From IMG/VR virus record IMGVR_UViG_2718217885_000011: DNA of 38,548 nt; one strand, written 5' to 3'. A program made the position numbers and the translations under genes. Positions within the stretch are counted from its first letter, which is position 1; each line of letters opens with the position of its first letter. Below, piece by piece: positions 23,936-37,422 of the stretch. The notes beneath the pieces were generated by a model, which worked only from the letters and a program-made list of their open reading frames with translations, made no database searches and had not been told where the DNA came from. Origin of the DNA: a virus (Duplodnaviria; Heunggongvirae; Uroviricota; Caudoviricetes).

Positions 23936-24966
23936 TGGGAAAGAGTAAGAAGAACCGAGCTGCGGCGACGAAACAGATCCAGCTTAAAAGTCAAACTACA
24001 GCCGAAGCATTCAGCTTCGGCGATCCCGTTCCTGTTCTGGACCGCCGTGAACTGCTGGACTATGTGGAATGCGTACAGATGGACCGCTGGTATGAGCCTC
24101 CCGTCAGCTTTGACGGACTGGCGCGCACCTTCCGCGCTGCCGTGCATCACAGTTCCCCGATTGCAGTAAAGTGTAACATTCTGACCAGTACCTATATCCC
24201 TCATCCTCTGCTCAGCCAGCAGGCTTTTTCGCGTTTTGTGCAGGACTATCTGGTATTTGGCAATGCCTATCTGGAGAAACGCACGAACCGCTTCGGTGAA
24301 GTGATCGCCCTTGAACCTGCGCTGGCAAAATACACCCGACGCGGATTAGACCTAGATACCTACTGGTTTGTGCAATACGGTATGACAACCCAGCCGTATC
24401 AGTTCACGAAAGGCAGCATTTTTCATCTGATGGAACCGGATATTAATCAGGAGATCTACGGCCTGCCCGGTTATCTTTCTGCCATTCCGTCAGCCCTGCT
24501 CAACGAGTCCGCCACGCTGTTCCGCCGTAAGTATTACATCAACGGCAGCCATGCAGGCTTCATCATGTATATGACCGATGCCGCGCAGAACCAGGAGGAT
24601 GTGAACAACCTCCGCAACGCGATGAAAAGCGCCAAAGGCCCTGGCAACTTCCGCAATCTGTTTATGTACTCGCCTAACGGCAAAAAGGACGGACTTCAGA
24701 TTATCCCGTTGTCAGAAGTCGCAGCGAAGGATGAGTTTCTGAATATCAAGAACGTGAGCCGTGATGACATGATGGCTGCGCACCGCGTGCCACCACAGAT
24801 GATGGGGATTATGCCAAGTAATGTTGGCGGGTTTGGGGATGTGGAGAAGGCCAGTTGCGTCTTTGTCCGTAACGAACTGATGCCTCTACAAAAACAACTC
24901 GAGGGGCTCAATGAATGGTTAGGGGAGAAAATTATGCGTTTTGAAAAATATGAACTAACTCTTTGA
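23932..24966 (+). CDS. portal (capsid vertex) protein Q
   Basis: 344-aa ORF, start overlaps P stop, P2 Q size. Confidence 0.9.
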   Translation: MMGKSKKNRAAATKQIQLKSQTTAEAFSFGDPVPVLDRRELLDYVECVQMDRWYEPPVSFDGLARTFRAAVHHSSPIAVKCNILTSTYIPHPLLSQQAFSRFVQDYLVFGNAYLEKRTNRFGEVIALEPALAKYTRRGLDLDTYWFVQYGMTTQPYQFTKGSIFHLMEPDINQEIYGLPGYLSAIPSALLNESATLFRRKYYINGSHAGFIMYMTDAAQNQEDVNNLRNAMKSAKGPGNFRNLFMYSPNGKKDGLQIIPLSEVAAKDEFLNIKNVSRDDMMAAHRVPPQMMGIMPSNVGGFGDVEKASCVFVRNELMPLQKQLEGLNEWLGEKIMRFEKYELTL

Positions 24967-24984
24967 GTTTCAGAGAAAATAGAG

Positions 24985-25006
24985 GCGGCGGTATGAATAC
25001 CGCCAA
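24985..25006. terminator. hairpin between convergent Q and cargo operon
   Basis: ggcggtat-ga-ataccgcc inverted repeat between the two stop codons. Confidence 0.4.
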
Positions 25007-25009
25007 CTA

Positions 25010-25711
25010 TTAAATTTCCCTTTCAAGAATATGAGAAACTATTGTCTCAGTTAAATATTTAACCATACCCTCGTTAGCACAGACAGAACCATTCTTCGAT
25101 ATCTCAAATTCACAACGATGTCCTAGAACATATCCTGCCGCCCTGACCTTATCAAGAGAATATGCTTTATCCCCAATAATATCCTTCACATCATCAAATG
25201 CATTTTTCTTAGATGTAACCTCTACGGTTGCCTTAGAGTTATCATTAACTATCAAATTACTAACCTTAACCTTCTTGATACTAACAAGTTCCAAATCATA
25301 TTTTTTATGCAGCGAATCCAAATACTCAGACAGTTTAATATCAACGATGCCAAACCCTATTTTATAACCTGAATCCGCACTAAGTCGCTCTGTCAAAGCC
25401 TTTATTGATTTTGGTGGATTGTAAACTGATAATAAATATAACCTACCTATGAGTTTAGATATAGAGAACTGAATTGACTCATAAGTAATGAACTCTTGTT
25501 CATTTTCGTTACCCAAAGGATCAACTGAAGTCTGTTTATTCAACTTAGCTTCAGTATACTTAGCTGATAGTACGTCAGATGAAACTTCAAAGTCAGAATA
25601 ACCATAGCCAAGTTCTTCAGAGTATTTGTTACTCTTTATATAAAAAGCAATCTCACTTAATGTAAGATTAGACTTCAATCTATTCCATTTAACTCTGATC
25701 AGACTTTCCAT
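25010..25711 (-). CDS. cargo operon gene 3, hypothetical protein (233 aa), no recognisable domain
   Basis: ATG start with GGGGAAG SD-like sequence, 23-nt overlap with the upstream gene; AT-rich codon usage unlike the phage core. Confidence 0.7.
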   Translation of the reverse strand: MESLIRVKWNRLKSNLTLSEIAFYIKSNKYSEELGYGYSDFEVSSDVLSAKYTEAKLNKQTSVDPLGNENEQEFITYESIQFSISKLIGRLYLLSVYNPPKSIKALTERLSADSGYKIGFGIVDIKLSEYLDSLHKKYDLELVSIKKVKVSNLIVNDNSKATVEVTSKKNAFDDVKDIIGDKAYSLDKVRAAGYVLGHRCEFEISKNGSVCANEGMVKYLTETIVSHILEREI

Positions 25712-26813
25712 CTTTCTTCCCCTGAGCCTGTTTATTTAGTTCAATTATAATGGAACGGGCTGCCTTTTCAATCATACGACTAAAAAATAACTTCTGACTA
25801 TCTTTCAACTGGACTGTTGACTTATTATACTCGCCACCCCCTTTGTATTTTTTAATACCTTTAGCTATATATGAAAACCCCTTAAAATTTTGAGCGTCGT
25901 TAAATTGCGCTTCAAACTCAAAAATATTTGGATCCGCACCTTTCTCTTTAACTCGCCATTTAATTTTACATATATAAAAGCCACGCTCATAAAGTGAGTA
26001 GATTTCTTCAGATTTGAGCACCCCTTCCCCTTTCAACGATGCCTTACTAACATGTACTCCTAAATCTGTTTCGCCGTCTTCCTCTTCAATCTCTTCTGGT
26101 TTTGGGTGATAAACATAAGCATCTGTTACATCATCGAGTTCATAACCTTCAAGCCCATTTATTAATTTCGTAAAGAAATCAGTTCTGGACTGAGGGGAAT
26201 CAATGTTTTCTAGACTTATTTCTTGGATATCGAGAGTAGCGTCCGAAATTGGTTTTCCTTCCTCAATCGCTCTTTCCTTTGATAATCTTTCAACGATAGC
26301 AAGTAACTGATTCTCATAAACCTCAGTTTGCTCATTATCTGGACGGCGAATCACATAACCAGCTTCTGTTGGCTCTACCTCTATGACAGCTTGCTTTTTA
26401 ACGACTTGTTTGAAATCACTTTTTGAAAAATTTGTTGACATATAAGTTATATGAATATTTATCATGCCACTTTTATCAGCAACTATATGGCAGAGGTCTT
26501 TTTGGTCTGTTAACTCTTTTTTTAGCGAATCCGCCGCTTTTAATAAAATTGTTTTTTCAGGCATATTAGATACTAATCTTGAAGTAGAACGCTCCCTCCG
26601 AGGCTCACTTCCTAATATCTCTGCAATTTTCTGATGATCATAGTAATCATGAGTGAACTTTGAGAAGTTTTTAGCTAATAATTTTCTATCGGTGTTTTTT
26701 GAAATAATTATACCTCTTGAAAGATAAAGCTCTCTCATCTCATTTTGAGTTACTTGTGACTGGTTAAGAGCATCACATAAAACCTTATCCGTCACACTAT
26801 AAATATTGCTCAT
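25689..26813 (-). CDS. cargo operon gene 2, hypothetical protein (374 aa) with acidic stretch, no recognisable domain
   Basis: ATG start 1 nt after the stop of gene 1 (TGA-T-ATG); long uninterrupted AT-rich ORF. Confidence 0.7.
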   Translation of the reverse strand: MSNIYSVTDKVLCDALNQSQVTQNEMRELYLSRGIIISKNTDRKLLAKNFSKFTHDYYDHQKIAEILGSEPRRERSTSRLVSNMPEKTILLKAADSLKKELTDQKDLCHIVADKSGMINIHITYMSTNFSKSDFKQVVKKQAVIEVEPTEAGYVIRRPDNEQTEVYENQLLAIVERLSKERAIEEGKPISDATLDIQEISLENIDSPQSRTDFFTKLINGLEGYELDDVTDAYVYHPKPEEIEEEDGETDLGVHVSKASLKGEGVLKSEEIYSLYERGFYICKIKWRVKEKGADPNIFEFEAQFNDAQNFKGFSYIAKGIKKYKGGGEYNKSTVQLKDSQKLFFSRMIEKAARSIIIELNKQAQGKKDGKSDQS

Positions 26814-26814
26814 A

Positions 26815-27879
26815 TCAATAATCCCAAGATGTTGATTCAGTACTATAAAACTCTTTAACTGTAGGAACTAAATAAATATCCATAGAAAGTAGTTTTTCCT
26901 TTGCACTATCATCATAATTCCAATCAAAAGCATACTTCTGAAGTGCCCGTTTAAAATGCGATCTTATTGAATCATTCCGATCTTTTGTCGCGATACGTAT
27001 TCTTATGTTGTTTTTTCCATTCAGAATCTGGTAGTTAGTTAAAAGATCAAAGAGATAATAAAACTCCATATCTGTGGAGCCCGGACGATTATAATATACA
27101 ACATACCCTGCAGGATAAACTTCAACTTCTCTTTGTAGCTCGCGATTATACGAGTAAACTGCATCATGTTTAATAATTAAAAATGGAGCAGTCAAAGACT
27201 CTATCGTTGCAGGTAAATAATCATCGGTGACAATTACCTTATGATATGTAAGTTGAGGGTAATAAAAACCATACTCATCTCTCGGGAATTGATTATCTCT
27301 GATTAATTCATTCATATCTGCGATTATAGATAACATATAGCTAATCGACTTAGGCTCAATTATATGTATTTGTTGCCCATCAGACACTTTTATATTATCT
27401 AATTTAACTGCCTTCGGCTTTCTTTTTCTTCCTGCAGGTTTGGGAGGATCGAAGAAATCATAAAAGTTATGCTCAAAATCGTTATCATGATTATAAACAA
27501 ACAATAACCCTCTAACCTCACTATCCCCAACGCATATATTATATTTCTCTCTCCACTCCGGACTATATTGAGCACAGGAAATTGTATACCCTAGGGATGT
27601 CAGCGCTTTTTCTATCATGTCAGGATTAATAGAACCCTTAGAGTAACTTTTTAGGTCAGTATTCAATAAAATAGTTTTATTTAAATAAGGGTCTTTATAG
27701 CTAAAAACCACATCGACAGGGTGTGTATGAGCCTGCTTTTTTTCGAGTGGTTTATGATTTTCTTCGTCAATACATCCAAAGTCCTGATCACACGGCCCTG
27801 ATATGCTCCATTTAAAGCGCTCAAAAATCTTCGATGATACTATCTTTGCTAATTCTTCTATCGGTCCGTTCTCAGCCAC
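26815..27879 (-). CDS. cargo operon gene 1, hypothetical protein (~354 aa); possible PD-(D/E)xK-like motif (HPVD ... ILLNTDLK)
   Basis: ORF open to TTG at 27912; GTG at 27879 preceded by AAGGGGA is the preferred start; no P-loop. Confidence 0.65.
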   Translation of the reverse strand: MAENGPIEELAKIVSSKIFERFKWSISGPCDQDFGCIDEENHKPLEKKQAHTHPVDVVFSYKDPYLNKTILLNTDLKSYSKGSINPDMIEKALTSLGYTISCAQYSPEWREKYNICVGDSEVRGLLFVYNHDNDFEHNFYDFFDPPKPAGRKRKPKAVKLDNIKVSDGQQIHIIEPKSISYMLSIIADMNELIRDNQFPRDEYGFYYPQLTYHKVIVTDDYLPATIESLTAPFLIIKHDAVYSYNRELQREVEVYPAGYVVYYNRPGSTDMEFYYLFDLLTNYQILNGKNNIRIRIATKDRNDSIRSHFKRALQKYAFDWNYDDSAKEKLLSMDIYLVPTVKEFYSTESTSWDY

Positions 27880-28007
27880 AATACATCCCCTTAACCTGAT
27901 CTTTCTCGGCAAAATCCTATGGACAAGATAAGTAAATCATTGTTCCTTTGCAAGAATGGAGGCGCATTATGCTTAGTAGTGAAATATGACATCAAGCGCG
28001 CGCTCGT

Positions 28008-28026
28008 ATCCCCGCCACGCCTGCCC
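28008..28026. other. probable cos site (cohesive end region)
   Basis: reverse complement reads GGCGTGGCGGGGATACGAG; first 12 nt match the 19-nt cohesive end of phage 186 as recalled, P2's differs at one of them. Confidence 0.45.
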
Positions 28027-28400
28027 GCTTTATGCAGTGGTTTTCATGCACATGCATAACATGAGCAAAAGCCCGCCAGTTCTGGCGGATCTGAGCAAAG
28101 ACGATCCTCAATCGATCATGCGATTTCATGCAGCATAGTCATGCACTGTCAAGGAAGTGAAAATCCGTATCTGAATGGCCACTTGAAAAACGGATCATAC
28201 GGGTTTACAAAGATGAATGTTCGCTGTGAACGGGAAGCGGAAGTTAACTTTCAGATAACATAATCCATATGCACGAGAACCTCTAAAATAGAATGGGACA
28301 CCTAAGCGGGGTACTTACAACGATTCTTTCCATATTCACAGTTAACACTCTGTTTGGCGTATTTTTATTCAAATAGCAAACACCAATAAAAGGAGTTTCC

Positions 28401-28736
28401 ATGAACAATATTCCCCCTATACCACAGTTAGGAATTTATGTCTCAAAAATCGATCCCACCCTACGTATCACTGTAACCGATGTTGATATTGTTGATGGTG
28501 AGGATGATTCTCCTGATGATGAATTGTTTTATTTAGTCCACTGGATCGAGGGGGAAGATGAAAGTGATATGACAGCAATGGGATTTGAGCTAGACCCAGT
28601 AGAGTGGCAGGCTTTCGTTGAATCTGAGCAATTAGTGTTTGAGCGTGATCCGTACATGGATTCAATCCCCGAAAATTCAAACTTGGCAAAGATTCGGGAT
28701 TTTCTCATGAAGACTAAACAGAATGATCATTCGTAA
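28401..28736 (+). CDS. small highly acidic hypothetical protein (111 aa)
   Basis: ATG preceded by AAAGGAG SD; strongly acidic (Asp/Glu-rich); AT-rich. Confidence 0.65.
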   Translation: MNNIPPIPQLGIYVSKIDPTLRITVTDVDIVDGEDDSPDDELFYLVHWIEGEDESDMTAMGFELDPVEWQAFVESEQLVFERDPYMDSIPENSNLAKIRDFLMKTKQNDHS

Positions 28737-28928: not shown

Positions 28929-29162
28929 TTAATGCAGCCAGCTGTCGTCCTCCCACACCTTCTGCATAATTTTCATCACTTGTTTTCTTTCTTCATCCAG
29001 TTGCAGTCCGGTTAGTTCCACACCGTTAGAGCTACCTTTGCGAATGCGAATTACCGTTTTGGGATACAGGGGGCGCAGATTGCGGTAAAGCTCGGATTCA
29101 AGGGCGTCCAGGGTAGACTGGCTAATCTTCTGCTCTTTATCGATCATTATTTCAATGCGCAT
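28929..29162 (-). CDS. DinI-family protein
   Basis: MRIEIMIDKEQ...VWEDDSW resembles E. coli DinI (MRIEVTIAK...TWESADDW); GAGGTGA SD before the internal ATG; ORF track extends to 29234. Confidence 0.75.
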   Translation of the reverse strand: MRIEIMIDKEQKISQSTLDALESELYRNLRPLYPKTVIRIRKGSSNGVELTGLQLDEERKQVMKIMQKVWEDDSWLH

Positions 29163-29172
29163 AAAAGTCACC

Positions 29173-29361
29173 TCAGCTGATGACATCCATTGAGCGGTTG
29201 TATTCGTGGCTTCTGATTTTTGCCATGAGTTCATCAGTCAATTCAGAAACCCACTGCAGAGCCAGCCCCTTCTCTTCATCACTACACTCACTAGCCGCTA
29301 CAAGCTTAAGAAAAAAATCAATGCGCTGGAGCTTCAAAGACTCCAAAAAATAGTCCTGCAT
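29173..29361 (-). CDS. small hypothetical protein (62 aa), first gene of SOS-box operon
   Basis: ATG with AGGAGG SD; LexA box about 45 bp upstream. Confidence 0.55.
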   Translation of the reverse strand: MQDYFLESLKLQRIDFFLKLVAASECSDEEKGLALQWVSELTDELMAKIRSHEYNRSMDVIS

Positions 29362-29513: not shown

Positions 29514-31928
29514 TTAATACAGGTTCCGCCACTTATCATCTTCCTTCAGACGCTGGTTCCGATAGAAGATACGCAGGCCTGCTCCTGACGGAATACTGCC
29601 GCCGCGAAGGAGCAAATCGACTTCTTTCTCGCTGCCATCAAATCCCCTGGACTTCAGTTCATAGACGAGCTGCTGTCGCTGATGGTCTGTAATTCGCTGT
29701 TTGTAGTCTTTACGCCGTTTCGGTTTCACCTGGCGTAACCTTGCAGCCAGTTCCCGGCGCTCTTTTTTGCTCATACTGTGCAGGTAATTGTGCAACTCCT
29801 TGTCATTCATACGGGTAATATCCGTTCTGGAGTCCCCATCAGCTGATTTGTCTTTCCCTTGCTGGTTCAAATTTTCAGCAAGGGGACAGTTATTGCCACG
29901 AGTCCAAGGGGCGCAAGCGCCCTGGTCGGCTGCCGCCTCCTGAACGTCAACGGCCTTACGAACCATTTTCCACTTCACTGCATGAGTGCAGATCTTGCCC
30001 TCTGCAATGGGTGACCAGATGCCATAAATACGAATGCCGTGATCGCCATAGGCGGTCGGCTCTTCGTTGATTTCATAAGCGGTTCTGATGAGGTGATATT
30101 TGCGGGGAACCAGTACGCCGCCCTGCTTCATGATGTAGGTGGCAAAACAACCAGCATCAGCAGCAGCCAGGATGGCATCAAGGCGTGGGTTATCCAGTAC
30201 CGGCGCACCTGCTTTTTTGTCCCCCTGTTGCCTTGCCGCCTGACCAGCCAGCAATCGCAGTTCACGGTAAGCCTGACGCCCCGGAATGCCAAAGAAGCGG
30301 AATTGCTGAACACGATGCAGAGACGCCCAGGCATTAACGTATTCAGCGTTATCACGCAGGGATTTACCCGTTTCCTTGCTGATCTCGCCAGCCAGACCAC
30401 GCCCGTCAATGTTCTTACTGATGTATTTCGCGATGTAGCTTGTTGGCGTACCTTTGCGCGGGTTTATCAGCTCAGACTTAAAGCGTGGTCCTGTGTTATT
30501 ACCCAGCTCCTCGCGGTCTTCACGAATGGCAAACTTACGCAACAAAGCAGTAATGGCGCGGCGATCTTTTTTGCGCATAAAACACAACAGGTGCCAGTGA
30601 ACTGTACCGTCATGATGCGGCTCAGCCACCCGCACGCCATACCAGCGCAATCCGGCTTTGTACATCGCCTTACGAAATGCAGCAAACATGCCGACCAGAT
30701 AATCACTGCTTTGTCTTACCGTCGCATTTGTCCAGGTCGGGTTGGGCCTGCCGTTATTTAGCGTGGAATGGAAACGTGACGGACAGGTGATGGTGTAGAA
30801 AACGGCGCAGTCGCCACGCATTTCCGCGATAAGCTCCAGACCTTTAACACAGGCCATCATCTCATTGCGGCGATGCGCAGGGTTGCTGCTGCTGGCGTTT
30901 ACCACATCCTCCATGTCCAGAGTGTCGCCGTCTTCGTTCACCAGTTCATGAGAACGGAAAAACTCCAGCGACTTACGGCGCTGCTCACGTTTATGCATCA
31001 CGGCTTCATAGCTGACATAGGGAGATGCTTTTTTGCTGACAAGGCAGACAGCACGCAACTGCTCTTCCCGCCATTCGCAACGCATCTTCCATAATTTCCG
31101 ATACCACCAGTCGGCGCACAACATACGCGCCAGCGAACCCGGAATGAGTTCATAGGGCACGGGTTTACGGCGGTTTCTTTTCCGACGGAGTTGCTCAAAC
31201 GCAGGCGGGATGACATCCAGACGCACGGTTTCCGCTGCCACCTTTTCCCATGTCTTGCGGATTTCTGCTGGCTTAACGTCATCGGTGGCATACAAATCGC
31301 CACAAGCTGCATCAAGGCACATGCTCATATGCGCAGCTACCAGGGTGGACAGGCGTTTCACCTGATCCTGACTCATTTCAGGCAGGATCAGCAGGCCGTC
31401 CAGCCCTTCATGGCTTGCCATAAAGCGAAAAGAAGTGGATAGCTGACTGTCGCGTACATGCTCCAGTCGTTCAAGACATGGCTTAATCGTCTCACGCAAA
31501 TAGCGGAAATAAGCCTTTGGCCTGCCCAGGCTGCTGAAGTATTCAATACGTTGCATCAGCGGCTTGCTGATGTGGGAAGGCTGGGCATTGACGTCCGCCA
31601 GAATGACCATTTCTGGATTAAAACGCTGCTGCTCATGCGCCAGCTTTGCCCGGCTAATGAGCTTATCCTGCTCCATTCCGCGTTGGACAGGATCACGGGA
31701 TTCATTAAAGAAATAACGCTCCCAGACCTGCTCACTCAGTGCCTCGTGGCGCAGTTGTTCCTGCTCGTTATCGGCAGCGTACAGAGTGATCAGGTTTGAA
31801 AGTGCAGACTCCGGCGCAACTTCCGCCGGGTCCAGATAAGGGTTAATGGCCTTTTTCGGGCCGTTCCATGAAAATGATGCAGCGGCCTCGTTAAAGCCGC
31901 TAGAGTTGCTCATATCGTCATAACTCAT
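29514..31928 (-). CDS. replication initiation protein A (rolling-circle HUH endonuclease)
   Basis: 804-aa ORF with HWHLLCF (HUH) and YIAKYISK (catalytic Tyr) motifs as in P2 gpA. Confidence 0.9.
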
Positions 31929-32782
31929 ACACGCACCTCGTACACAGCAGAACTATCTACGCCACGCGAAGGATCAAATCCCACCCAGCAGCGCGCCCCG
32001 GAAACAGCAATGATTTCTGTTGCAGATTTACTCTCGCCAGCCGACACGCCGATGCTGCGTTTTGCCTTGATGTAGTGGTGAGTGAAATTGCGATACAGCG
32101 AACGAATCAGGGATGTGTCACTGTTAGAAACAATGACCGGATGACCTTCAGATGATCGATGTTCAAGAACGGATGCCAGGTGATACTGGTCATCTTCAGT
32201 GAAGCCATCAGTGTGATAGCCGGAAAACGTACCGTCATAAGGCGGATCGCAATACACCACATCCCCCACCTTCAACATCGCCAGCGTTTCATCAAAGCTG
32301 GCGCAGATAAACGTTGCCCGCTGGGCTTTCTCTGCAAATGCGCGAATTTCTTTTTCAGGGAAATACGGATTTTTATAATTACCGTAGGGAATGTTGAAAT
32401 ACCCGCTCTTGTTATAGCGACATAACCCACGGTAACCATGACGATTGAGATACAGAAAATATACCGCTTTCATGAAATCAGTAATTTCAGTGGAGTAATT
32501 AAACTCCTGCCTTATGTTGTAATAAGCCACCTCCCTGTTTGCTTCCTCAAATAAAGCTCTGGCACGAGATATAAACGCCTCACAATCAGCAGCAACCTTT
32601 TTATAGAGGTTGATTAAATCAGGATTAATATCCGCAACAAGATAGCTGGGGTAATCCGTCTCCATCATCACTGCACAGGAACCCGCGAAAGGTTCAACCA
32701 GTCGCGGGCCAGCAGGAAGATGCTTTTTCAGTTCGGACATTATGGCGGTTTTATTTCCCGCCCATTTCAGGATGGTGCTCAT
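31925..32782 (-). CDS. dam: DNA adenine methyltransferase (Dam family, N6-adenine)
   Basis: [17 protein letters not shown] and DPPY motifs; collinear with E. coli Dam throughout; start at [11 protein letters not shown] overlapping upstream stop; ORF track extends to 32842. Confidence 0.9.
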
Positions 32783-33006
32783 ACAGCACCTCCGTTGTAA
32801 TGTTTGCCTTTCAGCTCTGCGATTTCCTGACAGGTAATGCAAAGCTGCACACCCGGAATGGCACGACGGCGTGCTGGCGGAATTGGCGCTTCACACTCAA
32901 CGCAAAGCACGCGGGACACGCCCGGCGTTTTGGCACGGGCAGCACGGATATGACGTTGGCGTTCTTCTTCAACTCGCTGCTGTACGAGATCCATTGCATC
33001 AGCCAT
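32779..33006 (-). CDS. TraR/DksA-family C4 zinc-finger protein
   Basis: CVECEAPIPPARRRAIPGVQLCITCQE four-Cys motif, 75 aa. Confidence 0.75.
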   Translation of the reverse strand: MADAMDLVQQRVEEERQRHIRAARAKTPGVSRVLCVECEAPIPPARRRAIPGVQLCITCQEIAELKGKHYNGGAV

Positions 33007-33819: not shown

Positions 33820-34329
33820 TCACAGCAAACCAAATGAAGCACCGAGGCCAGTCACGGTATCAACTGCACTCGCCATCGCAGGGTTAGCCTGTAAACGGGC
33901 CTGCAATGAAACAGCAGCCAACGCCATCAGTCGTGTTACAGAGTTAATGCTGCTGATAGCATCACGACGGCCTGCACTGGTTTTTACATCGCCAGACACC
34001 GCGCCTGCAGCTACACGCCCGATCTCTGCTGTTGCACTCATGACGTAATGCGGCAGTTTCTCTTTTGCCACCTCATTAATCGGAACACATGGCAGGCAGT
34101 GAATCTGTGCCAGAAAACCATCTACCAGTGTTGAGTCTTCTGTCAGATCAGTAAGCAACCAAATTTCTGGTGCGGTTAATAAATGAGGTTGAGCTGGATT
34201 CAGCTTGTTCCGCAGAATCTGCACATTCATACCTGCACGTTCTGCCAGTTGCACCAAGTTGTGGCGCAATGCAAATGCACGACAGGCTTCATCAAAATGT
34301 GGATGTTTGGAAACTTGGTAATCAAACAT
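33820..34329 (-). CDS. CII-like transcriptional activator (phage 186 CII family)
   Basis: [20 protein letters not shown]...[25 protein letters not shown] closely resembles 186 CII as recalled; start at internal Met, ORF track extends to 34383. Confidence 0.85.
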
Positions 34330-34361
34330 AGTCGACACTCCTGATGCATCCCAAAATGGAA

Positions 34362-34583
34362 CTAGTTGAATACAACATTGCAATCAGCAAGTGCATCAAC
34401 GGTAAGAGCAGCAAGGTTGATCATTACCTTTTCTCTTTTCTTGTCTTTCCGAAGGCGATGGCGAGGGATACGACCATCAGCCAGCATATCGTTGATGGTG
34501 TCGATAGAAAGACCAGTAAGTTCGCTATAACGCTCAATTGTGACGTGTGGCGTATTCAGAGTTATTGAAATGTTAGGGGTCAT
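34362..34583 (-). CDS. Apl/Cox-like excisionase and repressor of lysogenic promoter
   Basis: 73-aa HTH protein, first gene of the operon divergent/convergent with cI. Confidence 0.7.
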
Positions 34584-34670: not shown

Positions 34671-35609
34671 ATGTCAACTCAAAAAATCACATTTCGCCAT
34701 ATTGAAGATAGTCTGAAAGCTATGGTCATGCAGAATCGTGGAGGGCAAAAAGTCATTGAGAGGATACTCAAGGCCTATGGTTTCAAATCACGCCAAGCCT
34801 TCTGTAAGCATCTTGGTATTTCACAAAGCACAATGGCTAATAGATATGCACGCGATACCTTCCCTGCTGATTGGGTTGTTATATGTTCAATGGAAACTGG
34901 CGCATCCCTAGAATGGCTGGCCTTTGGTTCTAACAATGCAGAAGAAAGTTTCCCCCCTTATGTGGAACAACATGATGAAACAGTCCCACATGAGGGGTTT
35001 AACAGCAACGCTCATCAATCATCCTTTAAGCGCCGCATTGAGAATCACATTGAGCTTACTAACGGAGGAAAAGCCGCGATAGAGAGGATTGTTAATGCTT
35101 ACGGGTTTAAAACCCGCCAAGCCTTAGCCGACCACCTTGGTATTTCAAAAAGCACATTAGCCACACGATACATGCGAGATTCTTTCCCTGCGGATTGGGT
35201 GATTAAATGCGCATTAGAAACCAAAGCGGATCTCGCCTGGCTAGTTACAGGAATCGAAACACCAAATAGTTCACAAGAAGAAAACACTGTAATTTTAAAT
35301 AAGTTCAATTTGGTCAATGGCGTGCTTGTCGAGTCAGGTTTTTTATCCATGGATCGGTGTCTACTTCCGAAGCAAGAAACTAGCAGCTTGATGTTTGTAA
35401 GCAATGGAGAAAAACATGTCATATGTGATAAAGAATTTCACCTAATTAGAGATGGAAAATGGTTAGTAGGAATTGACAATGAGTTATCTTTAAAAGAGTT
35501 AACTCGTTTACCTAAGAACAAAATTCTTGTTTCTGGTGGGAGTAAGGATTTTGAGTGTTCCATTGAGGATATTCAAATTATAGCCAGCATTATCTTAACA
35601 ATACAATAA
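34671..35609 (+). CDS. CI-type immunity repressor (186 CI family) with tandem duplicated N-terminal HTH domain
   Basis: two ~65-aa repeats (IERILKAYGFKSRQAFCKHLGISQSTMANRYARDTFPADW... / IERIVNAYGFKTRQALADHLGISKSTLATRYMRDSFPADW...) plus a C-terminal domain resembling 186 CI. Confidence 0.8.
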   Translation: MSTQKITFRHIEDSLKAMVMQNRGGQKVIERILKAYGFKSRQAFCKHLGISQSTMANRYARDTFPADWVVICSMETGASLEWLAFGSNNAEESFPPYVEQHDETVPHEGFNSNAHQSSFKRRIENHIELTNGGKAAIERIVNAYGFKTRQALADHLGISKSTLATRYMRDSFPADWVIKCALETKADLAWLVTGIETPNSSQEENTVILNKFNLVNGVLVESGFLSMDRCLLPKQETSSLMFVSNGEKHVICDKEFHLIRDGKWLVGIDNELSLKELTRLPKNKILVSGGSKDFECSIEDIQIIASIILTIQ

Positions 35610-35652: not shown

Positions 35653-37422
35653 ATGAATCATCATCTTTCAAAGATTTCTATAAAAAACTTTAGATCTTGC
35701 AAAGATATTGATATCAATTTTTCTTCATTCACGCCTTTAATCGGTTACAACAATGCTGGTAAGTCAACGATTTTAAATGCTATTGAATGGCTTTTTAAGA
35801 AAAAACTTTTGTCCTCTGATGATTATACTAATCCAGATAACCCTATAGAAGTTATAGGTACAGTTAAGGGTATTACTGAAGATATTTTGTCAGCTTTAAC
35901 AGAAGAAAACAGAACTAGAATTTCACCCTACATTATTGATGGGGTATTGATATTTAAGCGTCAACAGACTGTTGGTGCTCAAAGTGCAAAAGACGTCAGA
36001 TTATTAATTAAAAACCCAGAAAATAACGAATTCAGGACATCACCAACGGGTATTGAGAATGCGATAAAAGCTTTATTTCCAGACCCAATACGTATAGGTG
36101 CAATGGAAAATGCAGCGGATGATTCTTCAAAATCAAAAACAGGAACTACAATAGGTAAGTTGCTGGCAGAATTGAGTTGCAAAATAGAAGAGAAGCACAC
36201 TCAAAGGATACTAAGCCATTTAAATGCCGTTAATAGAAGAATGACTGCAACCGGTAATAAACGAATATCGGACCTCAATGATATTGATGATTCAATAAGT
36301 AGTAAACTTGCTGATTTCTTCCTTGGGATAAGTTTAAAACTACACTTCGAACTCCCTGACTTCAAGGATATATTTAAATCTGGGACTGTAAAAGTATATG
36401 AAGATTCATTTCCCGGCATTGCTCGTGACTGTTCTTCTTATGGTCATGGCACACAGCGTTCGATTCAGATGTCTCTAATAAGACATTTAGCTGATATAAC
36501 CAACGGTGATGATATTAAAACAACTACTCTACTGTTAATAGATGAACCTGAGTTATATCTTCACCCATTTGCTATCGAACAAATTAGAGAATCTCTAAAA
36601 ACACTATCTCATCATGGATATCAAATAATTTTCTCTACCCATTCATCTCAAATGATTACCTCTGACTTAGCAAAAGACACTGTGTTAATCAGAAAAAACA
36701 GTCAGCGTGGCACTCATTGCAGATTAACATTAAAAGAAGCAGTCAATAAAGTAATCGAACAACGACCAGCACAAGCAACCCATTTATTTTCATTAACACA
36801 GTCTTCAAAAGTTTTGTTTGCTAACAATGTAATACTAACAGAAGGTAAAACAGAGACTACTCTGCTCCCATTTATTTTTAACAAAGTTAAAAATAAAACA
36901 TTAGGTCAGATGCAAATAGCACTAATTGAAACAGGGTCCGTTGAAAGTATATCTAAAACGATGCAAATTCTAAATTCAATGGATATACCTACAAAAGCAA
37001 TTGTTGATTTAGATTTTGCGTTCCGCGGTGCAATAAGGAACAACTTCTTAGAACATAATGACGAGGATATTTTACGACTAAAAGAAATCTTGAGAAGTAT
37101 GCATGCTAATGGAGAATGCACTCTCGATGGATCCGGTTTGCCTACAAAGGGTAGTAACACTACCGCAGCTGAAGCATTTGCTATTATGTCTCAAAAGCCC
37201 GGCGCCAGAGAATTTTTGTCATCATTAGCCGCAAAACTGAGAAATGCAAATATTTGGATTTGGCTAAATGGTTCGATAGAAAACCATTTGGGTCTTACAG
37301 AAAAAAATGAATCAGTATGGGCTGATTTCAAAACAAAAGCAGATACACAACCTCTTTCAGATATCTGTGCAGATTTCGAAAGTATTGAGGCTTTAGTCGA
37401 CTGGATTACCCCTGACGTATGA
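35653..37422 (+). CDS. OLD-family ATP-dependent endonuclease (ABC-type ATPase + TOPRIM), P2 Old-like class 1
   Basis: Walker A GYNNAGKST, Walker B LLLIDEPELYLHP, FSTHS, then TOPRIM-like VILTEGKTE and VDLDF; 589 aa (P2 Old ~586 aa); strong GGAGG SD. Confidence 0.85.
   Translation: MNHHLSKISIKNFRSCKDIDINFSSFTPLIGYNNAGKSTILNAIEWLFKKKLLSSDDYTNPDNPIEVIGTVKGITEDILSALTEENRTRISPYIIDGVLIFKRQQTVGAQSAKDVRLLIKNPENNEFRTSPTGIENAIKALFPDPIRIGAMENAADDSSKSKTGTTIGKLLAELSCKIEEKHTQRILSHLNAVNRRMTATGNKRISDLNDIDDSISSKLADFFLGISLKLHFELPDFKDIFKSGTVKVYEDSFPGIARDCSSYGHGTQRSIQMSLIRHLADITNGDDIKTTTLLLIDEPELYLHPFAIEQIRESLKTLSHHGYQIIFSTHSSQMITSDLAKDTVLIRKNSQRGTHCRLTLKEAVNKVIEQRPAQATHLFSLTQSSKVLFANNVILTEGKTETTLLPFIFNKVKNKTLGQMQIALIETGSVESISKTMQILNSMDIPTKAIVDLDFAFRGAIRNNFLEHNDEDILRLKEILRSMHANGECTLDGSGLPTKGSNTTAAEAFAIMSQKPGAREFLSSLAAKLRNANIWIWLNGSIENHLGLTEKNESVWADFKTKADTQPLSDICADFESIEALVDWITPDV

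Follow-up and report, generated by a model that had tools for sequence, protein, structure and literature searches.

What is the block of three adjoining genes that lies between the portal gene and the cos site of a P2/186-like prophage, and how might its products act against phages? The block is an AT-rich cargo in the cos-proximal hotspot of that prophage and spans positions 25,010–27,912 of the virus record IMGVR_UViG_2718217885_000011 (Caudoviricetes), whose full 38,548 nucleotides (nt) are referred to here as the window; its genes, in operon order, are hp1, hp2 and hp3, and their products Hp1, Hp2 and Hp3. The original prediction, made from the letters of the window, had proposed an undescribed three-component anti-phage system. 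Judged by sequence homology, the trio belongs, as a diverged member, to the already described and validated anti-phage system 3HP, and we lean towards the view that this diverged member is carried as P2/186-like cargo and acts as a three-gene relative of the GAPS4 system, a mechanism that we infer from distant homology and predicted folds.

Membership of the trio in 3HP

Each window protein was matched by the corresponding PADLOC profile: protein 1 by Hp1 (PDLC03004; E = 5.5e-64, profile positions 4–304 of 333), protein 2 by Hp2 (PDLC03005; E = 2.5e-47, positions 4–343 of 359) and protein 3 by Hp3 (PDLC03006; E = 6.9e-9, positions 3–200 of 227), and the order Hp1-Hp2-Hp3 of the PADLOC model is the gene order in the window. 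Two further PADLOC matches, MTase_I for Hp1 (E = 0.012) and REase_II for Hp3 (E = 0.001), were rejected as noise beside the strong Hp1 and Hp3 matches. No significant match for any of the three proteins was obtained in the Pfam copy searched, and PHROGs returned families of 'unknown function' only.

The reference for 3HP comes from Rousset et al. 2022 (Cell Host Microbe, PMC9122126), who described the hotspot between gpA and gpQ adjoining cos and listed, in their Table S2A, the plasmid pFR109 as "hp + hp + hp" from E. coli E1114, together with its protein sequences. When the E1114 3HP was cloned on a plasmid under its native promoter, it protected against P1 only, among eight phages (PMC9122126). 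BLASTP aligned all three window proteins full-length with their pFR109 counterparts, at 39% identity for Hp1 (E = 7e-69), 32% for Hp2 (E = 1e-48) and 20% over 205 amino acids (aa) for Hp3 (E = 3e-12). pFR109 resembles the window trio in its three genes, in their order and approximate size (354/374/233 aa in the window, 333/359/227 aa in pFR109), in its place between gpQ and gpA in the P2 hotspot, beside the same cos variant, and in the lack of Pfam domains in the Pfam copy searched; unlike the window trio, it has demonstrated phage resistance, known to act only on P1. In addition, the RefSeq proteins WP_040064001 and WP_040063998 are 99–100% identical to window proteins, and both are among the P2 loci in Table S5A of PMC9122126. 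Because of the PADLOC matches in gene order, the full-length alignments, the shared hotspot and cos variant, the near-identical Table S5A proteins and the conservation of the trio, we assign it to 3HP, all of whose sequence-level defining features (three homologies, adjacency, co-orientation and gene order) are present; since identity to the pFR109 proteins is only 39, 32 and 20%, the window form is, by this measure, a distinct subtype. The name 3HP has also been used in a Salmonella survey, where prophages carry the system for the most part and its abundance is high in Typhi and Paratyphi A (PMC11305592), and 3HP has been called in "spot 45.1" of Vibrio europaeus (PMC12824646).

In the Table S5A entry NZ_QOWR01000033 (E. 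coli), proteins 99–100% identical to window Hp1 and Hp3 adjoin DarTG, a DarT + Macro pair, in the P2 hotspot. DarTG is missing from the window, which indicates that the hotspot exchanges its cargo modules independently of one another.

One genome per species was scanned with the Hp2 alignment, which yielded 41 other loci from Buttiauxella, Erwiniaceae, Vibrio, Photobacterium, Rheinheimera, Stutzerimonas, many Pseudomonas, Cupriavidus, Ralstonia, Paraburkholderia, Janthinobacterium, Ideonella, Methyloversatilis, Gallionellaceae, Arenimonas, Terasakiella and Balneola. Hp1 was encoded directly upstream of Hp2 in 41/41 loci, and an open reading frame (ORF) of the Hp3 family, 223–251 aa long, was detected directly downstream in 40/41 with a profile and in the last locus with tblastn, so that the order Hp1-Hp2-Hp3 was kept in every locus. 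The P2 genes Q, P and A were present in a single locus, and 40/41 carried no P2 portal, terminase or gpA gene. An exhaustive profile search placed 608 clusters at 50% identity in the Hp2 family, 362 of them with E ≤ 1e-30. 3HP is thus a large family, most of whose examined loci lie outside P2 prophages, and the window subtype is rare in E. coli (2/5426 complete genomes).

In Metapseudomonas otitidis and V. europaeus the trio sits in small integrase-adjacent islands. In the V. europaeus island (our L045/L046, 4190..5515), a DUF3427 + NOV_C protein, an EndoU-domain protein and an S1-P1 nuclease are encoded close to the trio; the surroundings look like a small defence island bounded by the integrase, which may be the 'spot 45.1 (3HP and PD-T7-2)' of PMC12824646.

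Confident homology to a known system was found, so the claim of an undescribed or novel system does not survive: the trio is 3HP, present in PADLOC as Hp1/Hp2/Hp3 and validated against P1 (PMC9122126). As a discovery the locus carries little weight, its type being already part of PADLOC and routine defence annotation and the 99–100% identical RefSeq proteins having been catalogued in 2022. What the original prediction had said of the layout, by contrast, stood: the three consecutive minus-strand ORFs of about 354, 374 and 233 aa hold with a GTG start for gene 1, the 1-nt spacing and the 23-nt overlap that make them a coupled unit were read directly at the junctions, and the block is AT-rich (GC content 0.348, versus 0.541 for window 1–24966, the structural genes on the left side) and bracketed by the portal gene Q, which ends at 24966, and a cos-type 19-mer. 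That the three genes form one unit, together also in unrelated contexts, is borne out by the 41/41 loci that carry the trio, only one of them P2-like; and the proposal of a defence module as cargo in a cos-proximal P2-like hotspot gains support from 3HP membership.

Hp1 as a predicted nuclease and the folds of Hp2 and Hp3

The original prediction had also pointed to a weak PD-(D/E)xK pattern (HPVD...NTDLK) in gene 1 and an acidic tract in gene 2, and both are real. In 50 sequences of the Hp1 family, including the validated pFR109 Hp1, seven residues were invariant: H53, P54, D56, N73, D75, L76 and K77, of which D56, D75, L76 and K77 make up a conserved D...(D/E)xK catalytic motif. The NCBIfam family GapS4a (NF047933) matched window Hp1 (E = 3e-9) and 43 of the 50 family members (best E = 7.8e-12), and PF26115 (PDDEXK_GAPS4) was found on 120/120 Hp1 homologues among the matches listed; a PDB profile search with Hp1 gave no sequence relative. 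GAPS4a is a divergent PD-(D/E)xK enzyme with an N-terminal HGxD-SxK motif, the Asp of which is essential for defence (preprint 10.1101/2025.09.07.674715). The HPxD...DLK of Hp1 is the equivalent of this motif, and we predict that Hp1 is a GAPS4a-type PD-(D/E)xK nuclease with D56, D75 and K77 as catalytic residues, and the effector of the system.

For Hp2, the family GapS4b (NF047934) was matched by 1/63 close and 10/72 divergent family members, with E values from 1.4e-11 to below 0.01, and no other NCBIfam family recurred in the divergent set. In one member examined singly, residues 24–263 aligned with NF047934 profile positions 12–261 of 355. The member with a recorded score reached 25.7 bits, where the family cut-off is 300; window Hp2 gave no match to NF047934, and a PDB profile search with Hp2 gave no sequence relative. 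These matches suggest that Hp2 is a distant GAPS4b homologue. In its AlphaFold2 (AF2) model (predicted local distance difference test (pLDDT) 86.2, predicted template modelling score (pTM) 0.76), an N-terminal four-helix domain (residues 7–67) is followed by alpha/beta repeats, and the best structural match is the DNA-ring protein RdgC; Hp2 is a predicted DNA-binding sensor or scaffold with an RdgC-like fold. The acidic tract (residues 236–256) is modelled as a loop, with low confidence; it varies across the family in sequence and length and keeps its negative charge, with a net charge of at most −2 in 57/63 and 70/72 members.

Hp3 also gave an RdgC-like model (pLDDT 90.1), RdgC being its best structural match, and Foldseek against viral models retrieved phage entries named "recombination-associated protein RdgC" (E = 1.6e-6 to 1.4e-4). 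At the sequence level, profile searches found no relatives of Hp3 outside its own family, none in NCBIfam, GapS4b or PDB, and an NCBIfam scan of 23 Hp3 sequences gave no recurring family. The two models share the RdgC-like tertiary fold, and Hp3 is the predicted partner of Hp2. RdgC itself dimerizes into rings, in which a basic pore serves for non-specific DNA binding; its fold, which forms DNA-encircling homodimers or heterodimers, recurs in the Iml3-Chl4 heterodimer on centromeric DNA and in the lambda exclusion sensor RexA (PMC11077077). RdgC, RexA and Iml3-Chl4 (CENP-L/N), the best structural matches of Hp2 and Hp3, are thus non-specific DNA-binding dimers of ring or horseshoe shape, and RexA is a prophage-encoded sensor that works with the membrane protein RexB. 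Unlike 3HP, RdgC and RexA form homodimers and have no nuclease partner, and none of RdgC, RexA and Iml3-Chl4 shows sequence similarity to Hp2 or Hp3.

How close is 3HP to GAPS4? The latter (GapS4a/GapS4b; GMT islands) is an a2b2 complex with a GAPS4b ring and a non-selective deoxyribonuclease (DNase) that is activated by linear or broken DNA (preprint 10.1101/2025.09.07.674715). Both systems have a PDDEXK_GAPS4 nuclease domain with an N-terminal H-x-x-D...x-K motif, both place the nuclease gene first and the partner gene next, and GapS4b, like Hp2, has a helical domain followed by a ring-type fold. However, GAPS4 consists of two genes, sometimes fused, whereas 3HP always comes with the third gene, Hp3; the second motif is a canonical DxK in 3HP and SxK in GAPS4; and 3HP scores lie far below the NCBIfam GAPS4 family cut-offs. 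Going by its scores under the cut-offs and its three genes instead of two, the window trio is not GAPS4 sensu stricto. Other PD-(D/E)xK nuclease effectors that are activated by DNA ends or aberrant DNA, Shedu and Hachiman (discussed in preprint 10.1101/2025.09.07.674715), have sensor modules unrelated to 3HP.

Proposed mechanism and rival explanations

3HP probably works like GAPS4. Hp1 would be the effector DNase of GAPS4a type, given its matches to GapS4a and PF26115 and the parallel between its invariant HPxD...DLK and a GAPS4a motif with an essential Asp. Because Hp2 matches GapS4b, the RdgC fold encircles DNA and GAPS4 is activated by linear or broken DNA, we suggest a model of DNA-end sensing, in which Hp2 and Hp3 probably pair into an RdgC-type heterodimer, shaped as a ring or horseshoe, that would load on linear DNA or free DNA ends and stand in for the GAPS4b homodimer ring, with Hp1 probably docked on the helical domain at the N terminus of Hp2. 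Once linear DNA of an incoming phage was bound, that of P1 in the validated homologue, the activity of Hp1 would be released, with degradation of the DNA and abortion of the infection, and until infection the conserved acidic loop of Hp2, which is disordered, may mimic DNA and plug the clamp. P1 injects linear DNA, which is circularized by recombination; protection against P1 would fit the DNA-end model, since the linear P1 DNA must cyclize.

Several observations weigh against this GAPS4-like model. The GAPS4 homologies of Hp1 and Hp2 are remote: window Hp1 scores 36.4 bits against NF047933, where the cut-off is 270, which indicates homology of the domain and not membership of the GapS4a family, and only 11/135 Hp2 family members reach GapS4b. 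The window orthologue is only 20–39% identical to the experimentally tested 3HP, whose phage range is narrow whereas that of GAPS4 is broad, so the trigger may differ. The predicted Hp2–Hp3 heterodimer ring is drawn solely from monomer folds, and hhalign comparison of Hp2 with Hp3, with narrow and broad alignments, found no similarity (probability <1%), which also leaves a recent Hp2/Hp3 duplication unsupported at the sequence level. Finally, DNA binding by RexA is not strictly needed for exclusion (PMC11077077).

Among rival explanations, a 3HP member could act by another mechanism, in which RdgC-like Hp2 and Hp3 block RecA-dependent or other phage recombination (for example, the cyclization of P1 DNA, which is terminally redundant) and Hp1 is only an accessory nuclease; defence would then be direct interference and not abortive degradation of DNA. 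Such a block would suit the structural matches, RdgC being the best for both proteins, and the restriction of the validated 3HP to P1, a phage that circularizes by recombination. RdgC does inhibit RecA functions (as cited in PMC11077077), but the invariant Hp1 nuclease motif and the strict three-gene conservation in 41/41 loci argue for the nuclease as a core component, and in the homologous GAPS4, which degrades DNA, defence depends on the Asp of the nuclease; we therefore consider a recombination block unlikely. We give still less credence to a toxin–antitoxin or addiction module that stabilizes a mobile element, with the Hp1 nuclease as a toxin restrained by Hp2 and Hp3 and defence as a side effect. 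Carriage on prophages and integrase-flanked islands, tight translational coupling and the pairing of a nuclease with non-catalytic proteins would all be expected of an addiction module, yet the plasmid-borne homologue gave phage protection under its native promoter, and restraint of a toxin overlaps the abortive model rather than replacing it. A housekeeping role for the P2-like phage, as an accessory of recombination, replication or packaging in which RdgC-like DNA-binding proteins and a nuclease would act near cos, appears highly improbable: although the block adjoins cos and the portal gene, and some phages encode RdgC homologues annotated as recombination-associated, it is missing from most P2-like phages, with which the cos stretch alone is shared, and this variant has a GC content of 35% against 54% in the phage core, occurs in two of the 5426 E. 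coli genomes and has a homologue validated as a defence system. We reject this role, as 40/41 other loci have no P2 portal, terminase or gpA genes and the trio also occurs in islands that are not phages.

Within the GAPS4-like model, a more specific and tentative possibility is that 3HP is an asymmetric three-subunit derivative of GAPS4, in which Hp2, having kept the nuclease-docking domain, and Hp3, without it, would replace the GAPS4b homodimer to give a one-nuclease, end-sensing clamp gated by an acidic DNA-mimic loop. If so, this asymmetric derivative would unite 3HP, GAPS4 and possibly lambda RexA as one RdgC-fold class of DNA sensors in phage exclusion. Our literature search found no published mechanism for 3HP and no link between 3HP and GAPS4; the link of 3HP, GAPS4 and the RdgC fold is new and without counterpart in the searchable literature, although the naming of PF26115 already implies its Hp1 part. 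3HP thereby gains a concrete, testable mechanism, with a GAPS4a-type nuclease for which catalytic residues are named, a GAPS4b-like partner and a second RdgC-fold subunit, and, if the model holds, 3HP hosts may be hypersensitive to DNA-breaking agents, like GAPS4 hosts.

Gene layout, flanking signals and other cargo

Coordinates of the operon, its flanking signals and the other features of the prophage are collected in Table 1. The longest ORF for gene 1 spans 26815..27912 on the minus strand and would encode 365 aa from a TTG start; translation more likely begins at the in-frame GTG at 27879, because a ribosome-binding site (AAGGGGA) lies upstream, RefSeq has this start in an E. coli locus of 99% identity and homologues start there with 'MAENGPIE'. 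The junction of hp1 and hp2 reads TGA-T-ATG. Many full-length homologues of each gene indicate that all three are real and not chance ORFs.

Table 1. Features of the window around the 3HP operon and elsewhere in the prophage.
Feature	Position	Strand	Description
hp1	26815..27879	-	354 aa from GTG start; predicted effector nuclease
hp2	25689..26813	-	374 aa; predicted DNA-binding sensor/scaffold
hp3	25010..25711	-	233 aa; predicted Hp2 partner
cos-type 19-mer GGCGTGGCGGGGATACGAG	28003..28021	-	read from sequence; upstream boundary of cargo block
Terminator-like hairpin	24986..25005	-	scan; 8-pair stem, 5 GC pairs, then CCTCTATTTT (T-run)
Promoter-like site, candidate operon promoter	27966..27995	-	TTGATG, 18 nt, CATAAT; 9/12 matches in consensus scan
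111-aa ORF	28401..28736	+	strongly acidic; between cos and DinI-like gene; no Pfam or PADLOC match
DinI-like gene	28929..29234	-	
D12-class (Dam-type) N6-adenine DNA methyltransferase	31925..32842	-	directly downstream of replication gene A homologue
CII/CP76 gene	33820..34383	-	
CI-repressor gene	34671..35609	+	Phage_CI_repr + Phage_CI_C; 312-aa ORF as listed
Old nuclease homologue	35653..37422	+	full-length; PADLOC Old, E = 5.6e-232; Pfam AAA_15 + OLD-like TOPRIM

The cos-type 19-mer matches P2 cos at 14/19 positions and is identical to the cos of the pFR109 fragment cloned by Rousset et al.; a search with the P2 cos 19-mer allowing at most 3 mismatches gave no match, and this 5-mismatch variant was found by eye. 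Of the whole region, only window 27994–28147, which holds cos, is shared with other P2-like phages. The promoter-like site lies between cos and the Hp1 start; it is a candidate only, as the region contains no more such sites than expected by chance. At the other end, the terminator-like hairpin lies directly 3′ of the hp3 stop and faces the end of portal gene Q.

The 3HP cargo occupies the Q side of cos (window 24966..28021). In the fragment cloned by Rousset et al. the P2 order is Q end, cos, old, which places old and tin on the opposite side of cos, and insertion of cargo seems possible on both sides. P2 uses this cos-proximal hotspot too, for its cargo genes old and tin, and 3HP has no homology to Old or Tin. 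On the A side of cos, the window holds only the 111-aa ORF and the DinI-like gene. In the two E. coli genomes whose 3HP block is 99% identical, a different, 225-aa hypothetical gene takes the place of the 111-aa ORF, which makes this position a further variable slot.

The Old homologue in the window lies away from the cos hotspot, the site of old in P2, in a second AT-rich cargo block (GC content about 0.34–0.36) between the CI repressor and the integrase; with 3HP near cos, the prophage thus carries at least two defence systems at two loci. The DinI-like, CII/CP76 and CI-repressor genes presumably resemble the regulatory genes of phage 186 more than those of P2. Because the listed CI ORF contains two helix-turn-helix stretches, the real CI start is probably internal to it. 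The D12-class methyltransferase might modify prophage or host DNA, with relevance to self-protection or anti-restriction.

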